Source: Pedosphaera sp. (lineage in GTDB: Bacteria; Verrucomicrobiota; Verrucomicrobiia; Limisphaerales; F1-12-MAGs170). Taken from it: 53,475 nt of DNA. Under the pieces are notes generated by a model. It had not been told where the DNA came from and did not search any database. It saw only the letters and a list, made by a program, of their open reading frames with translations. The stretch lies in assembly GCA_009695275.1 (NCBI GenBank), contig SIBF01000004.1, forward strand, positions 1 through 53,475. The letters run 5' to 3'. This document shows positions 10,242 to 52,129 of this stretch, piece after piece. Each line of letters opens with the position of its first letter. The first letter of the stretch is position 1. The translations under genes were made by a program, and so were the position numbers.

Positions 10242-12575
10242 ATGACTCTTCACCTTGTGTCCTTTGTTCATGCTCTCGCATTTGTTCGAGGATGCCACAG
10301 ATTTCTAATTTGCCTGGCGCTTCTCAAAGGCGTTTGGGGAAATGCCGGAACCGAGACTGCAAAGCACTGGGCCTTTCAACCAATCGTGCGGCCGGCGCTC
10401 CCCGCCGGAAACAGCACCAACGCCATCGACCGGTTTGTCCTCGCAAGGTTATTGAAGAGCGGTGGTCCGGTTTTTTCAGAAGCCAACAGGCGAACGTTGG
10501 TCCGCCGCCTCAGCTTCAATCTGCGCGGTTTGCCTCCATCACCGGCGGAAGTGTCGGAGTTCCTCGCGGATGTGGCACAGGACGCGTACGAACGGTTGGT
10601 GGAACGTTTCCTCGCCTCTCCGCAATACGGCGAGCGGTGGGGACGGCACTGGCTGGACATTGTGGGTTACGCCGACTCGAATGGTTATTTCAACGCGGAC
10701 ACGGATCGACCTCTGGCTTGGAAGTATCGAGATTACGTCGTCCGCTCGATTGCCGCGGACAAACCGGTGAATCGTTTCATCACAGAGCAAATTGCAGGCG
10801 ACGAGTTGGCCGGTTACATCGCGGGAGGTGACGTGACTCCGGAGATGACAGAGGCCCTGATCGCAACGCATTTCTGGCGCAACGCACCTGACGGCAGCGG
10901 TGAGAGCGACGGGAATCCGCTTGAAGTCAAAGTGGATAATTACGCGGTGCTCGAAGGAAACGTCCATCTGCTCGGCTCGGCGTTCCTCGGGCTGACACTT
11001 CAATGCGCACGGTGCCACGATCACAAGTTCGAGCCGCTAACTCAGGACGATTATTACGCTCTGCAAGCGATCATTCGTCCAGTGTTCGACCCAAGCCGCT
11101 GGATCAAGCCAGACGAGCGCGTGATCGAAGCTGGCACCCGCGCCGCGCGCGATGGCAACCATAAACTCACGGCTGAAGTGGAGCGCGACCTCAAGACCTT
11201 GAACGCAAGCCTCGAGGGGTTGATCGGGCCATTCCGCAGACAAATGATCGAGGAAAACCTGGCGAAGTTCGTGGAGCCGTTTCGCAAAGATCTCTTGAAG
11301 GCGATCGACACGAAGGAAAAGGACCGCACCGAGTTGATGAAGTCGCTCCTGAAAACCAACGCGACGTTGGTTGATCTGAGTGAGGATACCGTGTTCAAGC
11401 GGTTTCCCACGGCAGCAACCGCGGCTCAACCGCTCAAGGTCGAGCTTCAATCCAGGCAGGCGGCGAAGCCGGTGCCGTTGGAACGTATCTCGGCAACGTT
11501 CGAGTCCACGAATTCACCTCCCGCGCATCATCTGCTCGTGCGAGGGAATCACGCGAGCGAAGGGAAGGAAGTGGCTCCGGGATTACCTCTGGCATTGCGC
11601 GGAACTGCTCTGCCTGGCGAAGGCCCGGCAAGCCTCGCGTCCACGATTTCTTCAGGACGCCGACTCTCACTGGCGCGGTGGCTGACATCAGCGGAAAATC
11701 CGGTTGTCGCCCGCGTGCTGGTGAATCGCGTGTGGCATTACCATTTCGGGCGGGGAATCGTGAGCACGATTGAGAATCTTGGGCAGGCCGGTGCAAAGCC
11801 GGCCAACCCCGGGCTGCTGGACTGGCTGGCGAGCGAGTTTGTCCGCTCAGGCTGGAGTTTGAAACATCTCCATCGGCTGATCGTGACGAGCGCCGCCTAT
11901 CGACAGGCGAGTCAGGAAACATCAGGCGAACGTGAGTCAAGCATTGCTGTACCCGGCACTGACTCGCTGAACACTCCACCTCTGAACTCTGTGTCGGCAG
12001 GACTGCGCCGCCTCGACGCTGAATCGCTCCGCGACGCAATGCTCGCTGTGACCGGGGAACTCGACTTGAAGCAAGGTGGACCATACGTGCCTACAAAAGT
12101 TGATGGCGAGGGTCAGATCATCATTGATGAAGCCCTGCCTGGCGCGCATCGGCGCTCCGTTTACCTCCAGCAGCGCCGGACGCATCCGGTGGACTTCCTG
12201 GCCACGTTCGACGGCCCGGCGCACAACCCGGTTTGTGTCCAGCGCGTTCCCTCGACCGTGGCTCAACAGTCACTATCGCTGCTGAATTCGGAATTCATCC
12301 GGACTCGTGCCAGGGCTTTCGCCAAACGCCTTCTGAGCGGCACGAGCACCGACTCGATCAAAGATGTTGCGCAGAGCGAGGAGCATAGCCTCATCGAAAA
12401 TGCCTTCGATATTGCCTACAACCGTCCGCCAGGCCAGGAAGAACTGGCAGCGGCGGAGAGCTTTCTTCGCGCCCAAGCAGCGGTTTATCCCGATCACAAA
12501 ACTCCCCGCGAGCAGGTTTGGTCCGACTTTTGCCAGATGCTGCTGGCGAGCAATGCATTCATGTATGTCGATTGA
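10242..12575 (+). CDS. PSCyt2/PSD1 (DUF1549/DUF1553) family protein
   Basis: Motifs CARCHDHKFEP and YGERWGRHWLDIVGYADSNGY. Co-linear with the 603..2879 protein. Its stop overlaps the downstream DUF1501 start. Confidence 0.85.
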   Translation: MTLHLVSFVHALAFVRGCHRFLICLALLKGVWGNAGTETAKHWAFQPIVRPALPAGNSTNAIDRFVLARLLKSGGPVFSEANRRTLVRRLSFNLRGLPPSPAEVSEFLADVAQDAYERLVERFLASPQYGERWGRHWLDIVGYADSNGYFNADTDRPLAWKYRDYVVRSIAADKPVNRFITEQIAGDELAGYIAGGDVTPEMTEALIATHFWRNAPDGSGESDGNPLEVKVDNYAVLEGNVHLLGSAFLGLTLQCARCHDHKFEPLTQDDYYALQAIIRPVFDPSRWIKPDERVIEAGTRAARDGNHKLTAEVERDLKTLNASLEGLIGPFRRQMIEENLAKFVEPFRKDLLKAIDTKEKDRTELMKSLLKTNATLVDLSEDTVFKRFPTAATAAQPLKVELQSRQAAKPVPLERISATFESTNSPPAHHLLVRGNHASEGKEVAPGLPLALRGTALPGEGPASLASTISSGRRLSLARWLTSAENPVVARVLVNRVWHYHFGRGIVSTIENLGQAGAKPANPGLLDWLASEFVRSGWSLKHLHRLIVTSAAYRQASQETSGERESSIAVPGTDSLNTPPLNSVSAGLRRLDAESLRDAMLAVTGELDLKQGGPYVPTKVDGEGQIIIDEALPGAHRRSVYLQQRRTHPVDFLATFDGPAHNPVCVQRVPSTVAQQSLSLLNSEFIRTRARAFAKRLLSGTSTDSIKDVAQSEEHSLIENAFDIAYNRPPGQEELAAAESFLRAQAAVYPDHKTPREQVWSDFCQMLLASNAFMYVD

Positions 12576-39738: not shown

Positions 39739-42480
39739 TCAATTCACAAACACGAATTCATTGCTGTTGAACAGGAGCCGGCACAGGTTGGCCAGTCCAT
39801 GTTGCTTTGCGTAGGCCGACAATTCGCGCGCTTCATCGGCATCCGGTAAACGCCCCCAGGTCCACTCGCAAGCTTCGTTGATGCTATGTTCCAGACCGGT
39901 TGCCCCACGGTCGAGCTGCGAGGCAAAGTGTTCGGCATAGCGGACCGTGAAGGCACTGTTCCAAAGCGCGAGCGCTTGTTGCACAGTCACGGAGTTGTTG
40001 CGCACCGGGGCGAGTTGATCACCCGCCGGGCAGTCGAGCGCGTCCATCATCGGATCCGGCAAGGTGCGGAAAAGGAAACGATACACGCTGCGCCGGCGGG
40101 CCATGTCGCTATCCACGTCGAACTTTGTGTAATCGACTTTTGGCGTGACATGAATGCCTGGCTGCAGATCGAATTGCTGATCGCTCGGCCCACCCATGCG
40201 CAGCTCCAGCCGGCCGGACATGAGCAGAATGGCGTCACGCACCTCCTCGGCATCGAGCCGTGTGCGGTTCATGCGCGAGAGGTAGCGGTTGTCGGGATCA
40301 GTCGTGTCCAGTTTTCCAGCCGCCTGCCGGTAACTCGCGCTGGTAACGATCAATCGATGAAGCTTCTTCAACGAGCCCCCGGCGTCGTCACGGAACCAGA
40401 CTGCCAGCCAGTCCAACAACTCGGGATGAGTGGGTGCCGATCCCATGCGTCCGAAATCGTTGACTGTCTCGACAATTCCGCGCCCGAAATGAAGGTGCCA
40501 GATGCGATTGACGATGGAGCGCCACACAAATGGATTCTCGGGATGCGTGAGCCAGCGAGCCAGGGCCGCACGGCGGGGACCTTCGACCTTCGCATCAGCG
40601 ATTGCGAATTGACTCGGCAGCGCGCGCGCACAGGAGAGAGTGCCTGGAGATGCGAGTTCGAGAGGCTTCGTGATTTCGCCGCGCCGCAGCATTCGCACTT
40701 CTCGTGGAGCACCGGCAGGCTTGTGACTGGCGTCCGGGGGGAAATCACTCGCTCCGGCAAAGACCAGCGCAGGCTTTGGAAGCCGGGAGAGGTCGCGCGT
40801 GATCCGTTCGCGTGCGACGAACGTGGCGAGCTGCAAGCGCTGCTCTTCGGTGCGTTCGCGTGGGGCGATCTTCACGAGCTTGTCGATCGTCTCGGGAACG
40901 ATTCTTACGGGCACTGGCGCATCAGTGATTGCCAGCCGCAGGCGTCCGATCAGATGCCCTGCGCCATGAAGTTGTTTCAGCGTGATGACAAGCTTCGAGC
41001 CGTCCGGCACGGACGCGGCTTGAGCAAGTTCGAAAACAGCCTGGTGCGACTCACCTTCACGCGGATGAACTCCCCACGCGGTCTTCTCGTCGCTGTCCAG
41101 CGCGTGACGGATCGTCCATCCGTCCTGATCGAAATCCGAACTGGCGTTGGTGAGGGAGAGCACGCGCGGAACTTCCGCCCCGCGCTCAAACAGGAACGCC
41201 TGAAATTCGCTGAGGTGCAGGTTGCCATTTTCATTCCTGCCCGGCCCGCTCTTTGGCAGGCGCTCATCCGCCAGTAATTCGAGACGAATTGCCGTCAGTT
41301 TTGGCAGGCCAACGCTCGTGGTGATCGTGTAGGTGTCCCGCTCCGGACGCGTGCCACTGGCGAACAACGACGCGTCCGATTGCCGCTTCAACGTGGTCCC
41401 GTTGGCCGAGAGGAACGTCTCCGGTTCCAGGACTTGCCATGCCGGCGGGTGGTGCTGTTGTTCCTCCCAGTCGGCGACGTCGCGCGCCGCCGCATCACTC
41501 AACAGAAGCGCGCGGTCACCCTGAGCGGCGCGCTTCAAGAACTCCTGCAACTCGCGCCTGCGCTGGTGAACCGTCTGATCGGGATCGTAAAAGCGATTAG
41601 CCTTGTCGGTGCCGGCGAACACGGCTTGGAGCGCGTAATAATCCCGCTGCGGGATTGGATCAAACTTGTGATCGTGGCAGCGGGCGCATTGAACAGTCGT
41701 GCTGGTGAACGTCTGCATCACCGTCGTCACGATGTCATCCCGATCAATATAGCGGGCACTCTGGCGATCCAGGGTATCTTCGCGAATGTCACGCAACGAA
41801 CTTTCATCCCACGGGCCTGAGGCCAGCAGTCCCATCGCCACGATCCCTTGCGGGTCTTCAGGGAACAGCACATCCCCCGCGACCTGCTCCTGCACGAAGC
41901 GTGGGTAGGGTTTGTCCGCGTTGAACGCGCTGATCAGGTAATCGCGGTAAGGCCACGCGTTCGTGCGGATGCGATCCTGATCATGGCCGTGGGTCTCGGC
42001 GAAATGAACCGCATCCATCCAGAGCCGCGCCCAGCGTTCGCCAAAGCGCGGGCTTTCGAGCAGGCGGTCCACCAGCCGCTCGTAAGCGTTCGTTGAGGTG
42101 TCGTTGAGAAACGTGCTGATTTCTCCCGGCGAGGGTGGAAGACCCGTGAGGTCAAAAGAGACGCGGCGAATGAGTGTCCTCCCATCCGCTTCGCCTGCCG
42201 GCTTGAACCCCTTTTGGTCCAGCCTGGCCAGGATGAACTCATCAACCGGATTGCGTGCGGGGTTTCCCCCGGAACTTGCGAAAGAATGATTTTGAACCGC
42301 TGGTCTGACCAGCGGGCGAATGGCCCACCACTCATTGGTTTCAGTCGCACCGAGCCTTACCGCCAGCGAAAGGACGAGCCCGCAAAGAACCGGACTCCGT
42401 CGTTTGCGAATCACATGGCAAAGAAGCAAGCCAAGACCGTTCAACAACGAACGGAAGTTCAACCTGGCTGTCTGGGTCAT
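39739..42480 (-). CDS. PSCyt2/PSD1 (DUF1549/DUF1553) family protein, long form
   Basis: Motifs CARCHDHKFDP and YGERWARLWMDAVHFAETHG, with an extra middle domain of ~200 aa relative to the other two copies. Start placed at MTQTARL before the hydrophobic segment. Confidence 0.85.
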   Translation of the reverse strand: MTQTARLNFRSLLNGLGLLLCHVIRKRRSPVLCGLVLSLAVRLGATETNEWWAIRPLVRPAVQNHSFASSGGNPARNPVDEFILARLDQKGFKPAGEADGRTLIRRVSFDLTGLPPSPGEISTFLNDTSTNAYERLVDRLLESPRFGERWARLWMDAVHFAETHGHDQDRIRTNAWPYRDYLISAFNADKPYPRFVQEQVAGDVLFPEDPQGIVAMGLLASGPWDESSLRDIREDTLDRQSARYIDRDDIVTTVMQTFTSTTVQCARCHDHKFDPIPQRDYYALQAVFAGTDKANRFYDPDQTVHQRRRELQEFLKRAAQGDRALLLSDAAARDVADWEEQQHHPPAWQVLEPETFLSANGTTLKRQSDASLFASGTRPERDTYTITTSVGLPKLTAIRLELLADERLPKSGPGRNENGNLHLSEFQAFLFERGAEVPRVLSLTNASSDFDQDGWTIRHALDSDEKTAWGVHPREGESHQAVFELAQAASVPDGSKLVITLKQLHGAGHLIGRLRLAITDAPVPVRIVPETIDKLVKIAPRERTEEQRLQLATFVARERITRDLSRLPKPALVFAGASDFPPDASHKPAGAPREVRMLRRGEITKPLELASPGTLSCARALPSQFAIADAKVEGPRRAALARWLTHPENPFVWRSIVNRIWHLHFGRGIVETVNDFGRMGSAPTHPELLDWLAVWFRDDAGGSLKKLHRLIVTSASYRQAAGKLDTTDPDNRYLSRMNRTRLDAEEVRDAILLMSGRLELRMGGPSDQQFDLQPGIHVTPKVDYTKFDVDSDMARRRSVYRFLFRTLPDPMMDALDCPAGDQLAPVRNNSVTVQQALALWNSAFTVRYAEHFASQLDRGATGLEHSINEACEWTWGRLPDADEARELSAYAKQHGLANLCRLLFNSNEFVFVN

Positions 42481-42628
42481 GGTCGGGAGAATAGTCGCCA
42501 CACTTCCGCACGCAAGCACAGGCAATAGTCCTCGGCGACGGTCGAATGCTGCGGAGAACTCAATTTCTGATTGGTTCAGTTTAGAATTCCGCTTGCCAGA
42601 CACGCGTCCGGTGCCTACCAGAGACGGC

Positions 42629-44014
42629 ATGAACCGCCGTAAATTCCTCAAGCAAAGCTCCACCGTAATCGCCGCCGCTGCCGTCGCTTCCTATGTTCCC
42701 ACCACTTTCGCCGCCGGGAAGTCGATCCGCGTCGGCCTCATCGGCACGGGCTGGTACGGCAAGAGCAGTTTGCTTCGCGCCATTCAGGTAGCGCCGATCG
42801 AAGTCGTTTCGTTGTGCGACGTGGATAGCAAGATGGCTGGTGCCGCCGCCGACCTGGTGGCCACCCGCCAGCTTTCCAAGAAGAAGCCGCGCATCTACTC
42901 GGACTTCCGCAAAGCAATCGCCGAGAAGGATGTGGACATCATGATGGTCTCGACGCCAGACCACTGGCATGCCATTCCGGCCATCACCGCGATGCAGGCA
43001 GGGTTCGACGTGTATTGTGAGAAGCCGACCGGCGTGGATGTGGTTGAGAGCCAGTCGATGGTGGCCGCCGCACGGAAGTACAACCGCGTGATGCAGGTCA
43101 ACACTCAGCGCCGCAGCACGCCGCACCTGATCGAGGCAAAGGAGGAGATCATCAAGGCCGGTCTGCTCGGCAAAGTGCAGAAGGTCGAGATCGGGGTCTG
43201 GTGGCACATGCGCAACAACATGCCCGTTTCGGAGGCCCCGGACATCGCGCCACCGGAAGGATTCGATTACGAGATGTGGACCGGTCCGGCGCCAAAGCAG
43301 CCCTTCAACAAGATCATTCACTCGCGCGGCTGGCGGGCCTACATGGAATACGGCAACGGCATCGTCGGCGACATGTGTGTTCACATGTACGACATGACCC
43401 GCTGGTTGCTCGACCTCGGCTGGCCGAAGAGCATCACATCCTGGGGCGGCATCCTCAACGACCGCAATTCGCGCGCAAACATCACCGACACGCAGACGGC
43501 GATCTACCAGCACGACGACTTCGACGTGACGTGGAACCATCGCACCTGGGGCAAGTCGCCCGAGCCCGACCCTGACTTTCAATGGTTCGGCACGATCTAT
43601 GGCGAAAAAGGCGTCCTCAAGTGCAGCGTGTTCCGCTACGACTGGATTCCATATTCGTCCGGCAAGGTCGAGCGCACGCGCAAGGCGTTGTTCGAATACG
43701 ACAAGCACCCCGAGGACAAGGCGGAGGAGAAGGAATGGAATCTCGAAGGCCACGTGGCCTCCGCGATGCGCCGGCATTGGCTGAATTATCTCAACGCGAG
43801 AGAGAACCGCGGCAAGATTCTGCCCGTCGCCGACATCGAGCAGGCGCACATCTCCAGCTCGTCGTGCTTCCTGGCCAACCTTTCGCAGAAGCTGGGCCGC
43901 ACGCTCGAGTTCGATCCCGCCACGCATACGGTGAAAGGCGATGCCGAGGCGAACCGGCTGCTGGCCCGGCCTTACCGCACACCTTGGGTCCACCCGACCC
44001 CGGACAAAGTCTGA
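42629..44014 (+). CDS. Gfo/Idh/MocA family oxidoreductase, Tat-exported
   Basis: Tat leader MNRRKFLKQSSTVIAAAAV and Rossmann GLIGTGWYG. A CEKP motif. Confidence 0.85.
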   Translation: MNRRKFLKQSSTVIAAAAVASYVPTTFAAGKSIRVGLIGTGWYGKSSLLRAIQVAPIEVVSLCDVDSKMAGAAADLVATRQLSKKKPRIYSDFRKAIAEKDVDIMMVSTPDHWHAIPAITAMQAGFDVYCEKPTGVDVVESQSMVAAARKYNRVMQVNTQRRSTPHLIEAKEEIIKAGLLGKVQKVEIGVWWHMRNNMPVSEAPDIAPPEGFDYEMWTGPAPKQPFNKIIHSRGWRAYMEYGNGIVGDMCVHMYDMTRWLLDLGWPKSITSWGGILNDRNSRANITDTQTAIYQHDDFDVTWNHRTWGKSPEPDPDFQWFGTIYGEKGVLKCSVFRYDWIPYSSGKVERTRKALFEYDKHPEDKAEEKEWNLEGHVASAMRRHWLNYLNARENRGKILPVADIEQAHISSSSCFLANLSQKLGRTLEFDPATHTVKGDAEANRLLARPYRTPWVHPTPDKV

Positions 44015-44048: not shown

Positions 44049-44193
44049 CAGTTGAAATGGAGAGCGCGGTCGTCTCGACCGCTGTTCTCGGCGTCTCGCC
44101 GAGAACTCAGTGGGCGTGACCAGTCACCAGAGGGTGGGTTTCCGGAGCGGACGAGCTGGTCAGCGAGACGCTGACCAGGGCGTGCGAGACGCA
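44049..44193. repeat. intergenic REP-like composite palindromic element (GGAGAGCGCGG…CGCGCTCCCC termini, four inner hairpins with TCTC/AGAC loops)
   Basis: Four hairpins read directly: GCGGTCG-TCTC-GACCGC, GTTCTCGGCG-TCTC-GCCGAGAAC, CTGGTCAGCG-AGAC-GCTGACCAG and GCGTGCG-AGAC-GCACGC. Located between convergent genes, where it could act as a terminator. Confidence 0.8.
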
Positions 44194-44219
44194 CGCGCTC
44201 CCCAATTGCGACTGAATAG

Positions 44220-45454: not shown

Positions 45455-48400
45455 TCACGCCAGGAGTGCTTTGGCCTTTGCCAACGCCTCGTCCAGCTTG
45501 CCCGGATCCTTGCCGCCACCGCGTGCGTTGTCGGGTTTGCCGCCGCCTTTGCCACCGACGATGGGGGCGATCTGCTGGATGATCTTTCCGGCCTGCACCT
45601 TCGCGGTGAAGTCCGGTGAGACGGAGGCGACCAGTGAGACGGCGTTGTTCGCTGCCCCACCGAGGACGATAACACCCTTGAACCGGCTCTTAAGCGCATC
45701 CACCACGGCTTGGAGATAATCCGCGTCGCCATCGGGGAAACCCTGCGTGATGAGCGGGATGCCGTTGACCGTCTCCGACCGGGTGAGCAACCAGGCCGCG
45801 GTCTGCGCCGCGTTTCGGGCGATGGACGTCTTGAGCGCCTTCTCCGACTCCTTCTGCTGCGCGAGCAGGCTCTCGACTTTCTTCTCCAACTCGGCGACGG
45901 GGGAATTCAACTTTCCCGCGACGGTGCGAAGGAGGTGAAGTTGCTGGTTCGCGAGTTCGTAAGCGGTGAGGCCGGCAACGGCTTCGATACGGCGCACGCC
46001 GGCAGCAATGGCGTTCTCGCTCACGATGCGGAACAGGCCAATCTCGCCTGTCGCACGGGTGTGGGTGCCGCCGCAGAGTTCCATTGAGTAACCATCCAGT
46101 TTGTTCGCCGCGCCGCCGATCTGGACGACGCGTACGGTGTCGCCGTATTTGTCGCCGAAGAATTGCATCACGTCCTTGCGCGATTTCACGTCGGCGTAGG
46201 GGACTTCGGTCCACGAGACGCCGGTGTTTTCAAGAATGCGTTCGTTGACGAGTTTCTCGATGTCGGCAACCTGCGCGGGTGTAAGCGGCGCGCTGTTGAA
46301 GTCGAAAGTCAGCTTGTCCGGGCCGACGAATGAACCTTTTTGCGACGCTTCCTGGCTTACGACTTCGTGCAGCGCCCAGTGGAGCAAGTGCGTGACGGTG
46401 TGGTGACGTTGGATGGCACTGCGGCGTTCGTGATCGACGGTGAGAAGGACTTCCGAACCGACAATTGGCAGCGCGTCGCCAGACGCGCTGGGAGCGCGAC
46501 CGTCCCGGTCGCCCTGCTGCGCGTCTCGCGCAGCAGATCGGTGGGGGTGGAAAACGAGAAACGTTGAGGAACTCGCGGCACCCTCGCGCGGGGAATCGGT
46601 CGGCGAGACGCCGACCGATGCGACCGGGACGGTCGCGCTCCCCTCTTCGATGAAATGGAGCCAGGTGTTGCCGGATTTTTGCGTGTTGGTGATGCGCCAG
46701 AGCTGGCCGCCGCCATTCAATTCGCCGGTGTCACCGACCTGGCCGCCCATCTCGGCGTAGCAGGCGGAAGCATCGAGGATGACAGCGGTCTTGTCCTTGA
46801 GCGAGACGACCTCCAGGACTTTGGCTTGGACGGCGAGGTGCTCGAAGCCGACGAACTTCGTGGGTGTCGTGGTCTCGATTTTCGAAAGTGAAATGACTTC
46901 CTTCTTCTGCGCGGCACGGGCGCGGGCGCGCTGCTCTTTCATCAGCTCTTCAAAGCCCTCCACGTCCACCGTCAGGCCACGTTCGCGCGCCATCAACTCG
47001 GTGAGGTCGAGCGGGAAGCCCTGCTCGTCATAAAGCCGGAACGCGAACGCACCTGAGATTTGGGCAGGGATGGCTTGGGGAGCGCGCCCGCCCCGGGCGC
47101 TGTTTCCCGCGCCCTCGCGGGAAACGGTCGGGCGTGGGACGTCACCGGACGCCGAGATTTCATTGTGCGTTCCCGAGCCGCCCGGGGCGGGCGCGCTCCC
47201 TGGCGCATCGGGAGTCCACAGCCAGCGATAATTCTCCGACGAGGGAACCACGGCGTTGTCCCAGGGATTGCGGCAGATGTAATGAAACTTCTCTTCCAAG
47301 TCCGAGTCGCCTCGCATCAGGCGGTCAAAAAAATCTTCCTCCCAAATATGAACTCCAGAGACCTTGGCCGCTTTGTTGATCTTGTGTGCGGTCGTGGACT
47401 TGATTCCGTGGAGGATTTCTCCGAGCGGATAAAAGACCGGTTTGCCGTCTTTGTCTTGCTCCTTGATTTGGGGTTCGAACAGCAGGTGAACATGGTCGGG
47501 CATCACGCGCGCGGCAAAAAGTTGATACTGCCGATGGGTGTGAGCATAGAGAACGCTCTCCAGCACGATGTCGCGCTCGGCCGGAGTGAGTTGCCGTTTC
47601 TCTCGCGTGGAGAAGGTCACCATGTATTTGCCCCAGGGTCGTTCGAAATGCGGCAGGCGTCTTTTGGAATAGGTAGCACCGGGGTTGTCGGACGCTCTGG
47701 GGCCGACCGCGAGGGCGCGGTCGGCTGCGCCCGGGGCGGGCGCGCTCCCCATCACCAATGGAAGCGGCGATCCCGCAGTCATGTGTGTCTTGTTTCCAAG
47801 TGTAATTCGAGCGGGACCACCCTGAATCAGACTCGCTTCCTCGTTGAAGAGCGCGATACCTTTGTCGAGCGTCTTGTTAAACGCCTCCTCCTCACGCTGG
47901 ATGACCTCCTGCACATGGGCTTTCCGGGCGCGAATTTCAGGGAAGACATCGCCCATTGTGTCGGCGAGCACGTCCACGAGCTTGTAGAAGAACGGTTGGT
48001 GGAAGCCGAGCGTGCGGCCGTAGCGCACGGCGCGGCGCAGGATGCGGCGGAGGACGTAGTTGCGGTCGGTGTTGCCGGGTTGGATGCCGTCGGCAATCGC
48101 AAACGAGAGCGTGCGGATGTGATCGGCAATAACCCGGAAGGCGATATCGAGCGCGATTTGCTCCGCACCATGGGCAGCGCGACCGTCCCGGTCGCTCTGT
48201 TGCGCGTCTCGCGCAACAGCCCCGGGGGTGTGGGAAGCGAGAGATGTTGAGGAACTCGCGGCACCCTCGCGCGCGGAATCGGTCGGCGGGACGCCGACCG
48301 ATGCGACCGGGACGGTCGCGCTCCCCGTCGCTTCGCGACGTAGCTTTTCCTCGGTCGCAGCGTCGGGTGTCCAGAGCCATCGATAGTTTTCCGTGGATGG

Positions 48401-49867
48401 CGCGACGCCGGAATCCCACGGGTTGCGGCAGATGTAGTGGAACTTCTCTTCGAGATCGGCGTCGCCACGAATCATGCGGTCGAACGATTCGTTCTCCCAC
48501 ACTTGGCCCGTGGTGTTTTCCGCCTTGTTGATCTCGTGGGCGGTGAACGATTTGATTGAGTGCATCAACTCGGACAGCGGCCAGAACACGGGCTTGCCTT
48601 CCTTGTCCTCCTCTTTGATCTGCGGCTCGAACAGGAAATGAACGTGATCGGGCATGACGCAGGCGGCATACATCTGATAGCGGCGCTGATCGTGTCCGAA
48701 AAGGAGGCTCTTGAGCACGATGTCCTGCGCTTGCGGCGAAAGCTGACGACGCTCGCGCGTTGTGAAACTAACCATGTATTTCGCCCACGGATGCTCGAAG
48801 TGCGGAAGGCGGCGCTTGTAGTAGGTAGCTTGAGGAGCGCGACCGTCACGGTCGCTCTGCTGCGCGTCCCGCGCGGCAGATCCGGGAGCGTGGGAAGCAG
48901 ATGATGCCGTTGGACTCGTCGCGCGCGTGGGATCGGGCGGCGGGACGCCGACCGGGGCGACCGGGACGGTCGCGCTCCCCGCTCCCTGCGGGAGTGTGCT
49001 GCCATAGCGTTTTCCACTCATTGCTTCCAGCGCGTCGAAGATCGGCCGAAAGATGTCGGTTTCATAGTTGGAGATTCTGGCGTTGGCGAAATCGGTCAGA
49101 CCCTTTGTGCCCTGCATGATGCTCGTGACGCGCTCGAAGCCCATGCCCGTATCCACGTGCTGGGCAGGCAACGGGGAGAATGTGCCGTCCGGGTTCGCGT
49201 TGAACTGGATGAAGACCAGGTTCCAGATCTCGATGCAGCGGGCGTCGCCTTTGTTGACAAGTGAACCCTTGGTGTCGCCAGCGGGCGTCAAATCAACGTG
49301 CAGTTCGGAGCAGGGACCGCATGGCCCGGTCTCACCCATCATCCAGAAGTTGTCTTTCTTGTTGCCGTTGACAATGTGGGCGGCGGGATCGAGGCCGACG
49401 CTGCGGAACTTTTCGGCCCAGAAGTTCCATGCTTCCTCGTCGCGCTCGGCAGGATCACCAATGGATTTGTCCGGATTGTAAATCGTGGCATAGAGCCGTT
49501 GGGGCGGAAATTTCCAGACACCGATAACCAATTCCCACGCCCACTCAATAGCCTCTTTCTTGAAGTAATCGCCGAAGGACCAGTTGCCGAGCATTTCGAA
49601 GAACGTGTGGTGGTAGGTATCAAGGCCGACGTCGTCGAGGTCGTTGTGCTTGCCGCCGGCGCGGATGCACTTCTGGGTGTCGGCGGCGCGGCCGGGTGTG
49701 TAGGGGCACCTGGTCTGGCCGAGGAAGATGGGCACGAACTGGTTCATGCCGGCGTTCGTGAACAGGAGGTTCGGCGAATCGGGCATTAGCGAGGACGATG
49801 GGACGATGGAGTGCTGCTTCGACTTGAAGAAGTCGAGAAACGACTGGCGGATTTGCGAACTCGTCAT
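45455..49867 (-). CDS. alaS: alanine–tRNA ligase (AlaS) carrying three in-frame mobile-element-derived insertions (1471 aa)
   Basis: N-terminus [50 protein letters not shown], tRNA-recognition block [37 protein letters not shown], editing-site [31 protein letters not shown], and C-Ala tail [16 protein letters not shown] are all collinear with AlaS. The roughly 600 extra residues map to three discrete stop-free inserts listed as separate features. Confidence 0.85.
   Translation of the reverse strand: [1470 protein letters not shown]
46484..46645. repeat. solo REP-like palindrome inserted in frame in alaS (~53 codons) just upstream of the editing-domain HxxxH region
   Basis: GGAGCGCGACCGTCCCGGTCGC…CTGCGCG-TCTC-GCGCAG…CGGTCGGCG-AGAC-GCCGACCG…GCGACCGGGACGGTCGCGCTCC. 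Translated as [54 protein letters not shown], between …WLHFIE and [17 protein letters not shown]. Confidence 0.8.
47075..47749 (-). mobile_element. second REP–RAYT–REP module in frame in alaS, 225 codons, ~70% identical RAYT core, variant REP termini
   Basis: Core [26 protein letters not shown]…[13 protein letters not shown]…[16 protein letters not shown]…YRWLWTPDA. Flanks GGGAGCGCGCCCGCCCCGGGCG… are GC-variant relatives of the first REP. The right flank is a 129-bp perfect palindrome encoding GSAPAPGG…RGGRAPQ. The insert lies in the helical tRNA-binding domain between …EEASLIQG and [13 protein letters not shown]. Confidence 0.8.
48173..48979 (-). mobile_element. REP–RAYT–REP module (IS200/IS605-like Y1/HuH transposase, TnpA_REP type) inserted in frame in alaS, 269 codons
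   Basis: Flanked by two ~160-bp palindromic REPs with GGAGCGCGACCGTCCCGGTCGC…GCGACCGGGACGGTCGCGCTCC termini, translated as GSATVPV…RDGRAPQ. The core is [26 protein letters not shown]…[13 protein letters not shown] (HuH) …[15 protein letters not shown] (catalytic Tyr) …YRWLWTPDA. It has no stop codon of its own and reads in the alaS frame. The insert sits between the aminoacylation and tRNA-recognition domains. Confidence 0.8.
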
Positions 49868-50077
49868 TCGTTGAAATGTTAAATCGTTAAATTGTGAACC
49901 GTAAAATCTTTGCCGCGAAAGAACGCAGAGAACACAAAGAATTCTTCCGCAACAAGGCGGGGAAACTAGCCGAAACCGTCCACGAGAGGCGAGTGGAAGT
50001 TTTGGCCCTTTTGGAGGTTCCACTGAAGAGGCAAGCGTGCCCGGCAGCCTTTTCCGACAAAACAGCCGGAAGAGTAT

Positions 50078-50740
50078 TCAGGGCATGAAACGGGGGGGAG
50101 GTGCTTTCACGAACGTCGTCGCGCGGAGATAGATGGGTTCAAGCAGCTCTCCTGGCAGGAAGTTGCTTCGCGTAACCGCGAGCTGACCGATGGCAGATGC
50201 GGCTGGCTCAACGTCGTGTGCTGATTGGAATTTTGCGGATAACCCCGGTCCGAAAAGACCACATTGATCACCGAGCAGAGAGTCGAGTTGTTCACGAGAC
50301 TTGAGGTTCATGGCTTCGATAATCGCGATGGTATTCGGGAAAATGTTCAACAAGGTCACGTAGAATTCACCTCGCTGCGCATCAATGGCGATTCGCACTT
50401 TGTCCCGGAGGCCTCTTTGCTGGAGTTGAAATGCGATGGCGTCAGCGCTGCCAACGCCTTGGAGTTTCAGACCTGTCGCCAGTTGCCAGCCCTGGGCGAT
50501 GGAGATGGCTGCCCGGATGCCGGTGTAGGAACCAGGTCCGAGTCCAACCACGATCTCACTTATCTCGCCGCGTTTGAGCCCGGCAACTCCAAGCGCGTTT
50601 TGTATCAACGCCAGCGGACGCACATTGCGATCCCCGGCATCGGCGGCTTCTCCCAGGATCTTCGCGGCACTGTCGCCATTGGCGGAAAGGATCGCCGCGC
50701 TCCGGATATTTCCTGAGAATTCGAGCGCCAATGTGATCAT
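50078..50740 (-). CDS. tsaB: tRNA threonylcarbamoyladenosine biosynthesis protein TsaB (YeaZ)
   Basis: MITLALEFSGNIRSAAIL…VVGLGPGSYTGIRAAISIAQG. Start chosen at MITLAL, 4-bp overlap with tsaE. Confidence 0.8.
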   Translation of the reverse strand: MITLALEFSGNIRSAAILSANGDSAAKILGEAADAGDRNVRPLALIQNALGVAGLKRGEISEIVVGLGPGSYTGIRAAISIAQGWQLATGLKLQGVGSADAIAFQLQQRGLRDKVRIAIDAQRGEFYVTLLNIFPNTIAIIEAMNLKSREQLDSLLGDQCGLFGPGLSAKFQSAHDVEPAASAIGQLAVTRSNFLPGELLEPIYLRATTFVKAPPPRFMP

Positions 50741-51192
50741 GCTTTTCCTGGTTTGATGCCCGTCTCGTCCGGCGTTGTAACGGTGATCCTGCGTTCTGTT
50801 TCGCCCAGAGTTTCGAGCACGACACGCACGAAATCTCCGGGCAATGGACCATTCCAGCGTTCGATCCATTCGATCAAGGCAATACCGTCCGGTTCGAGAT
50901 ATTCGACAAGTCCCGCGCCTATGATTTGAGCATCCGAATCCAGCCGGTAGAAATCAATATGGTGGAGCGGCAGACGTCCGCTGAAGTAGGTATTCAGCAG
51001 GGCGAATGTCGGAGATTGAACACGTTCCTTAACGCCAAGTCCGCGGGCAAAACCTCGTGCAAATTGCGTCTTGCCGGCTCCAAGATCGCCGCTCAGACCG
51101 ATCACGGTGCCCGCTGGCAATATTCCAGCAAGATCGTGCGCGATCGCTTCCGTCTCGGAAGGGCTACGAGAAATGTGTGTAACCGCTGACAT
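50737..51192 (-). CDS. tsaE: tRNA threonylcarbamoyladenosine biosynthesis ATPase TsaE (YjeE)
   Basis: P-loop GDLGAGKTQFARGFARGLG and SPTFALLNTY. Confidence 0.8.
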   Translation of the reverse strand: MSAVTHISRSPSETEAIAHDLAGILPAGTVIGLSGDLGAGKTQFARGFARGLGVKERVQSPTFALLNTYFSGRLPLHHIDFYRLDSDAQIIGAGLVEYLEPDGIALIEWIERWNGPLPGDFVRVVLETLGETERRITVTTPDETGIKPGKA

Positions 51193-52129
51193 TCAGTGGA
51201 CGCAGGCCGAACTTGTCCTGGAGGCGCAAGCCTGGTTTGACGGTGATCTTGCCTACGCACGAGATTTTGAGCGTCGAAAATCTTTGCTTCCAAGCGTCAA
51301 GCAGTGGAACAGCATCAGCGCTCCCGACGGTGAAGAGCAACTCGAAGTCCTCGCCGTCGGTTAATGCGGCGAGCAGCGCCTGGCCGGATGTGTCCACTTC
51401 GATCTCCAGGTTTCCTTTGCCAGGCAGTGCGGTGCGCGCTTTTTGCCGGGCTGCGCGGCTGACCGGAATGGCGCGGCCAAGCAGTTCGGCACCGACACCG
51501 CTACTCTGAAGAATATGGCGCAGATCCCCGGCGATGCCGTCGCTCAGATCCATCATGCTGTGGATGGAGAAGTTTTCCGCCAGCCACCGCGCCTCGGTAA
51601 GGCGCGGCTCGAAGTCGAGATGTTTGCCAAGAATCGAACCGCCCAACTCGCCTGTAACGAAAATGACGTCGCCTGGTTTGGCACCTGCCCGGAGAATCAT
51701 ACGATTCTTTGGCAGCACTCCCGTGACAGTCACGGAAATGAAGATGCGTTCCGGATTGCAGGTGGTTTCTCCGCCGACGATCGCGATGCCGTGTCGTTCG
51801 GCGAGAAGGCGCATCCCGGCGTACAGACCATCGATCCACTCAGGGTCGAAGCCTGGAGGCAAGCCCAGTGTGACCATCGCGTGTCTCGGAGTGCCGGCCA
51901 TGGCGGCAAAATCGCTGAGGCATCGACCGAGCGCTTTGTGCCCGACGCGCGGGGCTTCTGTTTCCGCGGTGAAATGGACGCCCTCGACCACGGCATCTGT
52001 TTTCAACAGCAGAAATTCGCCGGCCAGGCCGATATCCACGACCGCGCAATCGTGGCCTGCGCCGGCAATGACCGAGGAGTTGGTCGGGAGATTGGGAATC
52101 AGCCGTTGGATCAGATCAAACTCGGTCAT
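51164..52129 (-). CDS. thiL: thiamine-monophosphate kinase
   Basis: MTEFDLIQRL…GHDCAVVD…LLKTDAVVEGVHF…DFAAMAGTP…DLSDGIAGDL, AIR-synthase-related fold with ThiL motifs. Confidence 0.85.
   Translation of the reverse strand: MTEFDLIQRLIPNLPTNSSVIAGAGHDCAVVDIGLAGEFLLLKTDAVVEGVHFTAETEAPRVGHKALGRCLSDFAAMAGTPRHAMVTLGLPPGFDPEWIDGLYAGMRLLAERHGIAIVGGETTCNPERIFISVTVTGVLPKNRMILRAGAKPGDVIFVTGELGGSILGKHLDFEPRLTEARWLAENFSIHSMMDLSDGIAGDLRHILQSSGVGAELLGRAIPVSRAARQKARTALPGKGNLEIEVDTSGQALLAALTDGEDFELLFTVGSADAVPLLDAWKQRFSTLKISCVGKITVKPGLRLQDKFGLRPLNVSGYTHFS

Follow-up and report, generated by a model that had tools for sequence, protein, structure and literature searches.

Two transposase cassettes inside an alanyl-tRNA synthetase gene

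The alanyl-tRNA synthetase (AlaRS) gene, alaS, of a Pedosphaera sp. (phylum Verrucomicrobiota; contig SIBF01000004.1, positions 1 to 53,475, hereafter the window) is interrupted by two REP-associated tyrosine transposases (RAYTs), each accompanied by repetitive extragenic palindromes (REPs) and all of them within one uninterrupted reading frame. RAYTs are HUH/Y1 single-strand DNA endonuclease-transposases of the class 2 TnpA-REP type. From the sequence, we consider it quite probable that the two copies represent two anciently separated Verrucomicrobiota RAYT clades, whose cassettes (a REP, a RAYT and an inverted REP) would reside in frame in short surface loops of the essential alaS and be translated as domains of its product. 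The cassettes have no promoter, start codon or stop codon of their own, and the same sense, in-frame arrangement recurs across many genomes in AlaRS (three sites), ThrRS, MetH, RecG, PriA, ValRS, PurH and DnaK. It is also fairly likely that these cases form a phylum-wide class of cassettes devoid of start and stop codons that would persist as translated internal domains of these essential proteins (in AlaRS at no fewer than three sites), with related copies living as abutting cistrons in operons.

Our reading of the host gene covers the alaS copy in the window, which occupies positions 45,455–49,867 of the minus strand, with a likely start at M53 ('MTSSQIRQSF', at 49,867) of a single stop-to-stop open reading frame (ORF) of 1522 codons (45,455–50,023). 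Pfam recognizes in this ORF the families PF01411 (tRNA-synt_2c, E = 1.3e-171), PF07973 (tRNA_SAD) and PF02272 (DHHA1), together with two internal stretches of Y1_Tnp (IS200-like transposase, PF01797, E = 3.7e-13). The AlaRS sequence is interrupted at three places, sites C, B and A, and none of the interruptions introduces a stop codon. Site C (48,173–48,980) holds a REPIN (an inverted pair of REPs), the first transposase (RAYT-1) and a second REPIN, site B (47,077–47,751) a single REP, RAYT-2 and a REPIN, and site A (46,490–46,643) a REPIN without RAYT, all on the minus strand. A phmmer comparison with solved AlaRS structures produced three aligned blocks with breaks exactly at sites C and B, which in human AlaRS correspond to loops of 6 and 10 residues, respectively.

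The only open frame through each RAYT insert is that of AlaRS (2/0/2 and 3/0/5 stop codons in the three sense frames), and the chance of one open frame is about 5–7e-4 per insert. Neither cassette has a start codon ahead of the conserved N-terminal KRRLPHFE, nor does either contain a stop codon. The REPs also belong to the AlaRS frame, where they read as 'GSATVPVA...' and 'GSAPAPGA...', and the termini of the inserts read GSA... and ...RAPQ. A composite AlphaFold2 model of residues 53–754 (the N-terminal half of AlaRS plus RAYT-1), which serves only to contrast domain with linker, gave a pLDDT of 85–97 for the RAYT and below 35 for the REPIN-coded segments, a prediction that fits a folded RAYT domain held on disordered linkers.

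Two divergent but intact RAYT cores

The RAYT-1 core (48,359–48,829, minus strand, aa 399–555, with a Y1_Tnp Pfam match) and the RAYT-2 core (47,204–47,677, minus strand, aa 783–940, catalytic residues kept) are HUH/Y1 domains that share 111 of 158 residues (70.3%) and 70.0% of their nucleotides. Both carry KRRLPHFE, DHVH (the HuH motif), FHYICRNPW (with the catalytic Tyr) and ENYRWLWTPDA, and H62, H64, Y132 and N136 are invariant in all 87 RAYT cores that we aligned (see below). The single catalytic Tyr of both copies lies in a Y-x3-NP motif (YICRNP), the class 2 signature of TnpA-REP (PMC6006769). Foldseek placed the AlphaFold2 model of the isolated RAYT-1 (pLDDT 89.4) closest to the Escherichia coli TnpA-REP bound to a REP hairpin (4ER8_A, E = 3.9e-6, TM 0.66), with IS200, IS608 and ISDra2 transposases as runners-up, and 4ER8 is also the sole sequence match to RAYT in the PDB (E = 0.009). 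By sequence, motif and predicted fold, the elements of the window are thus RAYTs.

The identity between the two cores is 82%, 85% and 42% at the first, second and third codon positions, respectively; with so few third positions shared, synonymous sites are saturated (pS 0.75), whereas dN is 0.20. Their longest identical DNA run is 14 nt, which excludes recent gene conversion and, together with the 70% DNA identity, also rules out a recent duplication. A preliminary description of this DNA had proposed that positions 47,075–48,979 contain two RAYTs about 70% identical in amino acids, with catalytic motifs retained in both, and that the pair is not a recent duplication. That interval does span both cassettes, and the identity, the motifs and the divergence are all as it had anticipated.

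A distinct REP hairpin for each RAYT

The REPs that flank RAYT-1 have the form GGAGC-GCGACCG-tcc-CGGTCGC and those that flank RAYT-2 the form GGAGC-GCGCCCG-ccc-CGGGCGC, a difference of one compensatory stem pair (A:T to C:G) and one loop base. A degenerate REP pattern, which misses an element at 44,060–44,203 whose stems differ, matched the window nine times against 0.01 expected by chance, and all nine matches fall inside alaS. Six are of the GCGACCG type, around RAYT-1 and at site A (46,491, 46,620, 48,174, 48,303, 48,834 and 48,957), and three of the GCGCCCG type, around RAYT-2 (47,079, 47,178 and 47,727). RAYT-1 has a REPIN on both sides, one gene-upstream (48,833–48,980, translated as 'GSATVPVAPVGV...RDGRAPQ', with a long hairpin of z = -4.0) and one gene-downstream (48,173–48,326, hairpin z = -10.7). 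RAYT-2 has a single REP gene-upstream (47,727–47,748), which together with an adjacent secondary hairpin covers 47,690–47,751, and a REPIN gene-downstream (47,078–47,200; 22 nt, 100% complementary; hairpin z = -7.4). The solo REPIN of site A (46,490–46,643), read in frame as 'GSATVPVASVGV...RDGRAPS', is of the RAYT-1 flavour and 90% identical to the REPIN at 48,173–48,326. All of these lie on the minus strand. The element at 44,060–44,203, for which no strand is assigned, is the sole extragenic REP member found in the window. It is REPIN-like, carries the GGAGC tag and lies between convergent genes for a GFO/IDH/MocA oxidoreductase and an acyltransferase; neither of its stems (GCGGTCG and GCGTGCG) matches those of the alaS RAYTs.

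Elements always end as gg-GGAGC...GCTCC-cc, with an invariant GGAGC tag extended to GGGGAGC. A search for exact element boundaries and a target duplication met with REP-to-REP spacings that do not divide by three and with host loops whose variability precludes alignment. REP-like motifs are concentrated within host ORFs (0.74/kb versus 0.034/kb outside). Without any filter for pairing, 134 of 173 tags beside RAYT cores precede a perfect 7-bp hairpin. In 41 distinct REPs, 90.9% of cells pair as against 70.7% in shuffles, double changes occur in six of seven pairs, and the stem covariation score of 0.587 compares with 0.234 in shuffles and was reached by none of 500. The REPIN-encoded linkers have dN/dS (omega) values of 0.33–0.82 and an unusually low dS for the same genome pairs as those compared below, which points to constraint on the nucleic acid and not on the peptide.

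Around site B we also noted a 24-residue stretch, 'GGPARITLGNKTHMTAGSPLPLVM' (47,751–47,822), just upstream of the RAYT-2 REP, without counterpart in the related loci inspected, and a 396-codon antisense ORF (47,060–48,250, plus strand) that is stop-free across all of RAYT-2 and the AlaRS segment beyond. The latter is probably a by-product of the G+C content and would be relevant if an inversion occurs. RAYT-1 has no open antisense frame.

Old lineages under strong purifying selection

In a neighbour-joining tree, RAYT cores group by host gene and site. The RAYT-1 clade is found only at AlaRS site C and the RAYT-2 clade at site B, except for three members at site C (L026, L042 and L045). Twelve positions of the aligned cores distinguish the two clades, and for each copy of the window, orthologues occupy the corresponding alaS site in about 20 other species-level genomes. 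Behind the invariant GGAGC, the REP stems are GCGACCG in the RAYT-1 clade and GCGCCCG in the RAYT-2 clade, and a third stem, GCACGCG, with varied loops, accompanies the ThrRS, MetH, free-standing and other AlaRS clades. In the other doubly occupied genes with both REPs readable (L014, L044 and L062), the two RAYTs also have different REP flavours.

Measured against orthologues, dN/dS is 0.04–0.07 for RAYT-1 (clade median 0.051) and 0.03–0.06 for RAYT-2 (clade median 0.041). The RAYT cores (0.03–0.07) are thus below the AlaRS segments that carry them (0.06–0.21) for the same genome pairs. Since RAYT dS equals or exceeds host dS for these pairs, the greater conservation of the RAYT protein reflects stronger selection and not recent transfer; combined with the same-site orthologues in about 20 genomes, it also indicates that the RAYT-1 and RAYT-2 lineages separated long ago. 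RAYT and host distances are correlated with Spearman coefficients of 0.20 and 0.33, which lends little support to a strictly vertical co-divergence of RAYT and alaS. The sequence data taken together support two old, separate RAYT lineages, each co-evolving with its own REP, over a recent duplication.

The preliminary description had also suggested that each RAYT is tied to its own REP flavour and co-evolves with it, and that dN/dS, fold prediction, a REP census and free-standing RAYTs should be examined. The nine REPs of alaS sort by flavour as it had described. Its other expectations were borne out by the low dN/dS (far below 1, both between the copies and against orthologues), the predicted 4ER8-like fold with REPIN hairpins at z from -4 to -10.7, and a census of about 80 genomes in which each RAYT clade has its own stem and the hairpin shows compensatory covariation. 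A comparison with free-standing RAYTs, made with those of other genomes, was likewise in favour. Where the description spoke of two old, independent insertions, old and separate lineages hold, whereas the age of each insertion in this genome is not fixed by the data, given the patchy occupancy described below and the RAYT-2-type elements at site C of three genomes. Where it spoke of purifying selection for transposase function, the selection is clear, although selection alone does not separate a transposase from a domesticated function.

The low dN/dS of its own segments indicates that alaS is under purifying selection. This bears on the idea that the alaS of the window is a paralogue or pseudogene in decay that tolerates junk inserts, or that the RAYT pair is a recent duplication or an assembly artefact. 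Public assemblies often show these genes fragmented by gene callers, as such an idea would lead one to expect, but a constrained host gene, an arrangement that recurs in about 100 independent assemblies, and two copies that disagree at 30% of sites, are saturated at synonymous ones and share no identical stretch above 14 nt make it scarcely credible.

Recurrence in other genomes and other host proteins

A protein search returned hundreds of Verrucomicrobiota proteins named 'RayT', of about 200–240 aa, whose ORFs read through both flanking REPs, as well as fragments joining RAYT to AlaRS or MetH. A query with the junction from a Methylacidiphilum MAG, made to find a cultured carrier, matched only metagenome fragments. 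A scan with one genome per species found 479 relatives, of which we analysed the best 80 loci plus two further ones (82 loci, 87 RAYT matches). In this set, 83 of 87 RAYT matches lie within stop-to-stop ORFs of at least 550 aa, and the hosts are AlaRS at site C (36), site B (about 30) and site A (3), ThrRS (9) and MetH (7). Site A is occupied by a whole RAYT in L044, L052 and L062, and in other genomes by REPINs in a frame that differs from that of the window ('GARPSRS...'). An independent sample of 80 metagenome alaS genes, picked by similarity to the AlaRS segment between the inserts and not by RAYT, showed a patchy occupancy: at least one RAYT in 34 of 80 genes, with 15 of 77 genes occupied by a RAYT at site C, 22 of 78 at site B and three at both, and REPs at site A of 15 of 76. 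All 37 RAYTs of this sample are in sense orientation, in frame and within long ORFs.

The range of hosts grew with a profile search against 1.84 billion representative proteins, which gave 237 matches at E <= 1e-30. The best 150 of these include about 40 long proteins in which the RAYT is internal. Pfam analysis of ten long proteins one by one identified RecG (P0133, P0140, P0143 and P0203), PriA (P0179), ValRS (P0202), PurH (P0234 and P0258), DnaK (P0262) and a DNA methylase (P0218), to which the Pfam family counts across all 41 long proteins add Ham1, shikimate kinase, pyruvate formate-lyase and biotin ligase. The RAYT splits the DEAD helicase domain in RecG and the HSP70 domain in DnaK. Even the 'free-standing' relatives that we inspected are squeezed in at conserved operon positions between genes of the same direction, with stop and start codons that abut or overlap, either after an Amuc_1100-like pilus gene or between two T2SSE ATPase genes (L001, 4997–5660; L083, L084 and L087, about 4001; L085 and L086, 3998–4609). 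Such abutting cistrons suggest translational coupling rather than a promoter of their own, so that this RAYT group seems generally reliant on host expression signals. Across many genomes and host proteins, this RAYT group has conserved the embedded, in-frame state as its way of life.

Other insertions were seen in alaS genes. L032, L044 and L045 have a fourth site with an in-frame REPIN, in the catalytic (N) domain of AlaRS after 'FIQFNAQP' (read as 'GSAPASG...'). In further alaS relatives, sites C and B are filled by unrelated insertions of a tandem-repeat or helical kind, which marks these loops as general insertion hot spots.

The uniform orientation and frame also bear on whether the cassettes are lost on the way to a working AlaRS, through RNA or protein splicing or through DNA excision in most cells, leaving a mature enzyme without them. 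The flanking REPINs form, as DNA, hairpins of great stability (-52 to -66 kcal/mol), which draw the two host flanks close to each other, and the essential housekeeping-gene niche resembles that of inteins and group I introns. Splicing, however, requires neither sense orientation nor frame nor freedom from stops, but all three are combined in 83 of 87 copies of one set and in 37 of 37 of the other. The inserts lack intein terminal residues, their predicted fold is HUH and not Hint, and an Rfam scan of the window gave no matches, including no intron or ribozyme. We regard such removal as very improbable.

Turnover, domestication and a possible mechanism

Several loci bear signs of turnover. L045 has a RAYT-2-type element at site C with site B cleanly empty. 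In the metagenome sample, all five RAYT-1-type elements (at least 83% identity) at site C are accompanied by a site A REP, with the GCGACCG stem in three of the five. One metagenome alaS gene (L091) has an orphan GCGACCG-type REP at site A with an empty site C (a 24-nt loop), a state consistent with the clean loss of a RAYT-1-type cassette. These sequences suggest that REPINs may be mobilized and cassettes cleanly lost.

The main competing explanation is that these RAYTs are fully domesticated, immobile accessory domains with a new function for the host enzymes or the cell (for example, ssDNA or RNA binding or REP processing). In its favour, the RAYT dN/dS is below that of AlaRS itself, the RAYT dS at or above host dS is consistent with vertical descent, and the general view of RAYTs is that they are domesticated, present in single copy and inherited vertically (PMC8266576, PMC6006769). 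Complete domestication is nevertheless difficult to reconcile with the patchy occupancy among the closest alaS relatives, the presence of the same RAYT clade at different sites, the many unrelated hosts, the retention of flanking REPs with structural covariation and the existence of solo REPIN copies; we judge it unlikely, though a serious contender.

Some observations weigh against our proposal of translated, still active cassettes. Strong purifying selection on an apparently single-copy, mostly vertical element is what domestication predicts too. The REP copy number is very low (nine intragenic and one intergenic in 53 kb), so ongoing REPIN mobilization is weakly supported. The AlaRS part of the composite model is poorly predicted (mean pLDDT 61), a low overall confidence explained by the shallow alignment for that part. 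Finally, in L088, a metagenome contig of 945 bp, a comparison with window positions 47,076–48,149 shows an RAYT-2-type RAYT inverted between its REPs relative to alaS, which would truncate AlaRS after about 130 antisense codons; the contig may represent a true allele with an inversion or else a chimeric assembly.

If the cassettes are indeed translated and active, their persistence could be explained as follows. The RAYT would be made as a domain within the AlaRS polypeptide, with the Pro/Ser/Ala/Gly-rich peptides encoded by the REPs acting as disordered linkers, and would keep cutting and joining ssDNA at its cognate GGAGC-tagged hairpins, an activity that would account for the 90%-identical REPIN at site A. 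Residence in an essential gene may shield the cassette, because its imprecise loss would be lethal. Two cassettes could probably coexist in one gene only with diverged REPs, since recombination or RAYT action between like REPs would delete the essential segment between them.

Genomic context

In the window, genes matching AIRS (thiL-like), TsaE and the TsaD family (tsaB-like) (50,078–52,129) are the immediate upstream neighbours of alaS and share its direction. Three genes of the PSCyt2/PSD1 type (DUF1549/DUF1553), typical of the Planctomycetes-Verrucomicrobia (PVC) group, are also present (603–2939, 10,242–12,575 and 39,739–42,663). A tRNA scan of the 53 kb detected no tRNA genes.

Significance and comparison with known systems

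RAYTs are the textbook example of a 'domesticated transposase', and both their cellular role and the mode of REP dissemination are unsettled. Here a RAYT can be expressed only through an essential host protein and yet is more tightly constrained than its host, which makes the question of why selection maintains RAYTs more acute. If our interpretation is correct, this would be the first intein-like niche for a DNA transposase, which would borrow host transcription and translation and be shielded by the essentiality of its host, and a catalytically intact HUH nuclease would be tethered to housekeeping enzymes. Co-resident cassettes would have to diverge in REP specificity, making the pair in the window a natural orthogonal RAYT/REP system, and the single compensatory stem pair and 12 clade-diagnostic residues provide a compact system for mapping the determinants of hairpin recognition. 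The survey also identifies permissive domain-insertion sites in AlaRS, ThrRS, MetH, RecG, DnaK and other proteins. Gene callers split or mislabel such genes, as in the AlaRS fragments named 'RayT', and a previous survey took 'unexpectedly long proteins' for gene fusions or errors of annotation and set them aside (PMC6006769), a choice that has kept the phenomenon hidden in databases.

Our full-text literature search found descriptions of REPs inside ORFs and inside RAYT genes, and none of a RAYT with its REPs in frame within housekeeping genes; the in-frame embedded lifestyle thus looks undescribed. The closest relatives are the REPtrons (E. coli YafM, PDB 4ER8; class 2 of Quentin et al. 2018, PMC6006769), which share with the elements of the window the HUH motif, the single Tyr in Y-x3-NP, the nearest fold, the inverted REP hairpins with a conserved 5' tag flanking the gene, and the RAYT-REP co-evolution, which has been shown experimentally for other RAYT/REP pairs (PMC8266576). 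A canonical REPtron, however, is a free-standing RAYT gene with its own start and stop codons and extragenic, high-copy REPs, whereas in the window the REPs are few, mostly intragenic and apparently translated within the reading frame, in a cassette inside a host ORF without start or stop. The window RAYTs therefore depart from two canonical REPtron features, since their tag is GGAGC instead of GTAG or CGTC and the gene is embedded without extragenic high-copy REPs. The TIRYT elements of subclass 2.1 have inverted repeats GGGG[AT][CG]A[CG] and a C-terminal HTH extension (PMC6006769); the ends in the window, GGGGAGCG, have one mismatch to that consensus, and neither Pfam nor the AlphaFold2 model revealed a C-terminal HTH.

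REPs inside ORFs, including those of Opitutus terrae and of tRNA synthetase genes, and the in-frame palindromic elements of Rickettsia have been described (Di Nocera et al. 2013, PMC3733652). As in the window, these palindromes lie in frame in housekeeping genes (for tRNA synthetases and repair) and the host tolerates the extra peptide, but they are only short non-coding repeats, whereas the window insert includes a transposase gene under strong purifying selection. REPs are also read through in frame within RAYT-system coding sequences in the tnpAREP subclass 2.4 (PMC6006769), although there the REP is inside the RAYT gene, whereas here both RAYT and REPs are inside an unrelated essential gene.

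With the TnpA of the IS200/IS605 family (IS608 and ISDra2), our elements share the HUH/Y1 fold and probably also the hairpin-recognizing ssDNA chemistry. They differ in having the Y-x3-NP motif instead of the class 1 Y-x3-Q type, symmetric inverted REPs instead of asymmetric left and right ends with subterminal hairpins, and no TnpB; their copies are 70% identical, unlike multi-copy, near-identical insertion sequences. A further parallel is with inteins, which have a Hint fold, an N-terminal Cys or Ser, and a C-terminal His-Asn followed by Cys, Ser or Thr. Both are selfish or neutral coding inserts translated within essential housekeeping proteins (aminoacyl-tRNA synthetases, helicases, DnaK-type proteins and glycyl-radical enzymes), with patchy distribution and recurrent sites. 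The window inserts have no Hint fold, splicing residues or intein Pfam match and, instead of occupying conserved active-site motifs, they sit in variable loops and are presumably kept in the mature protein.

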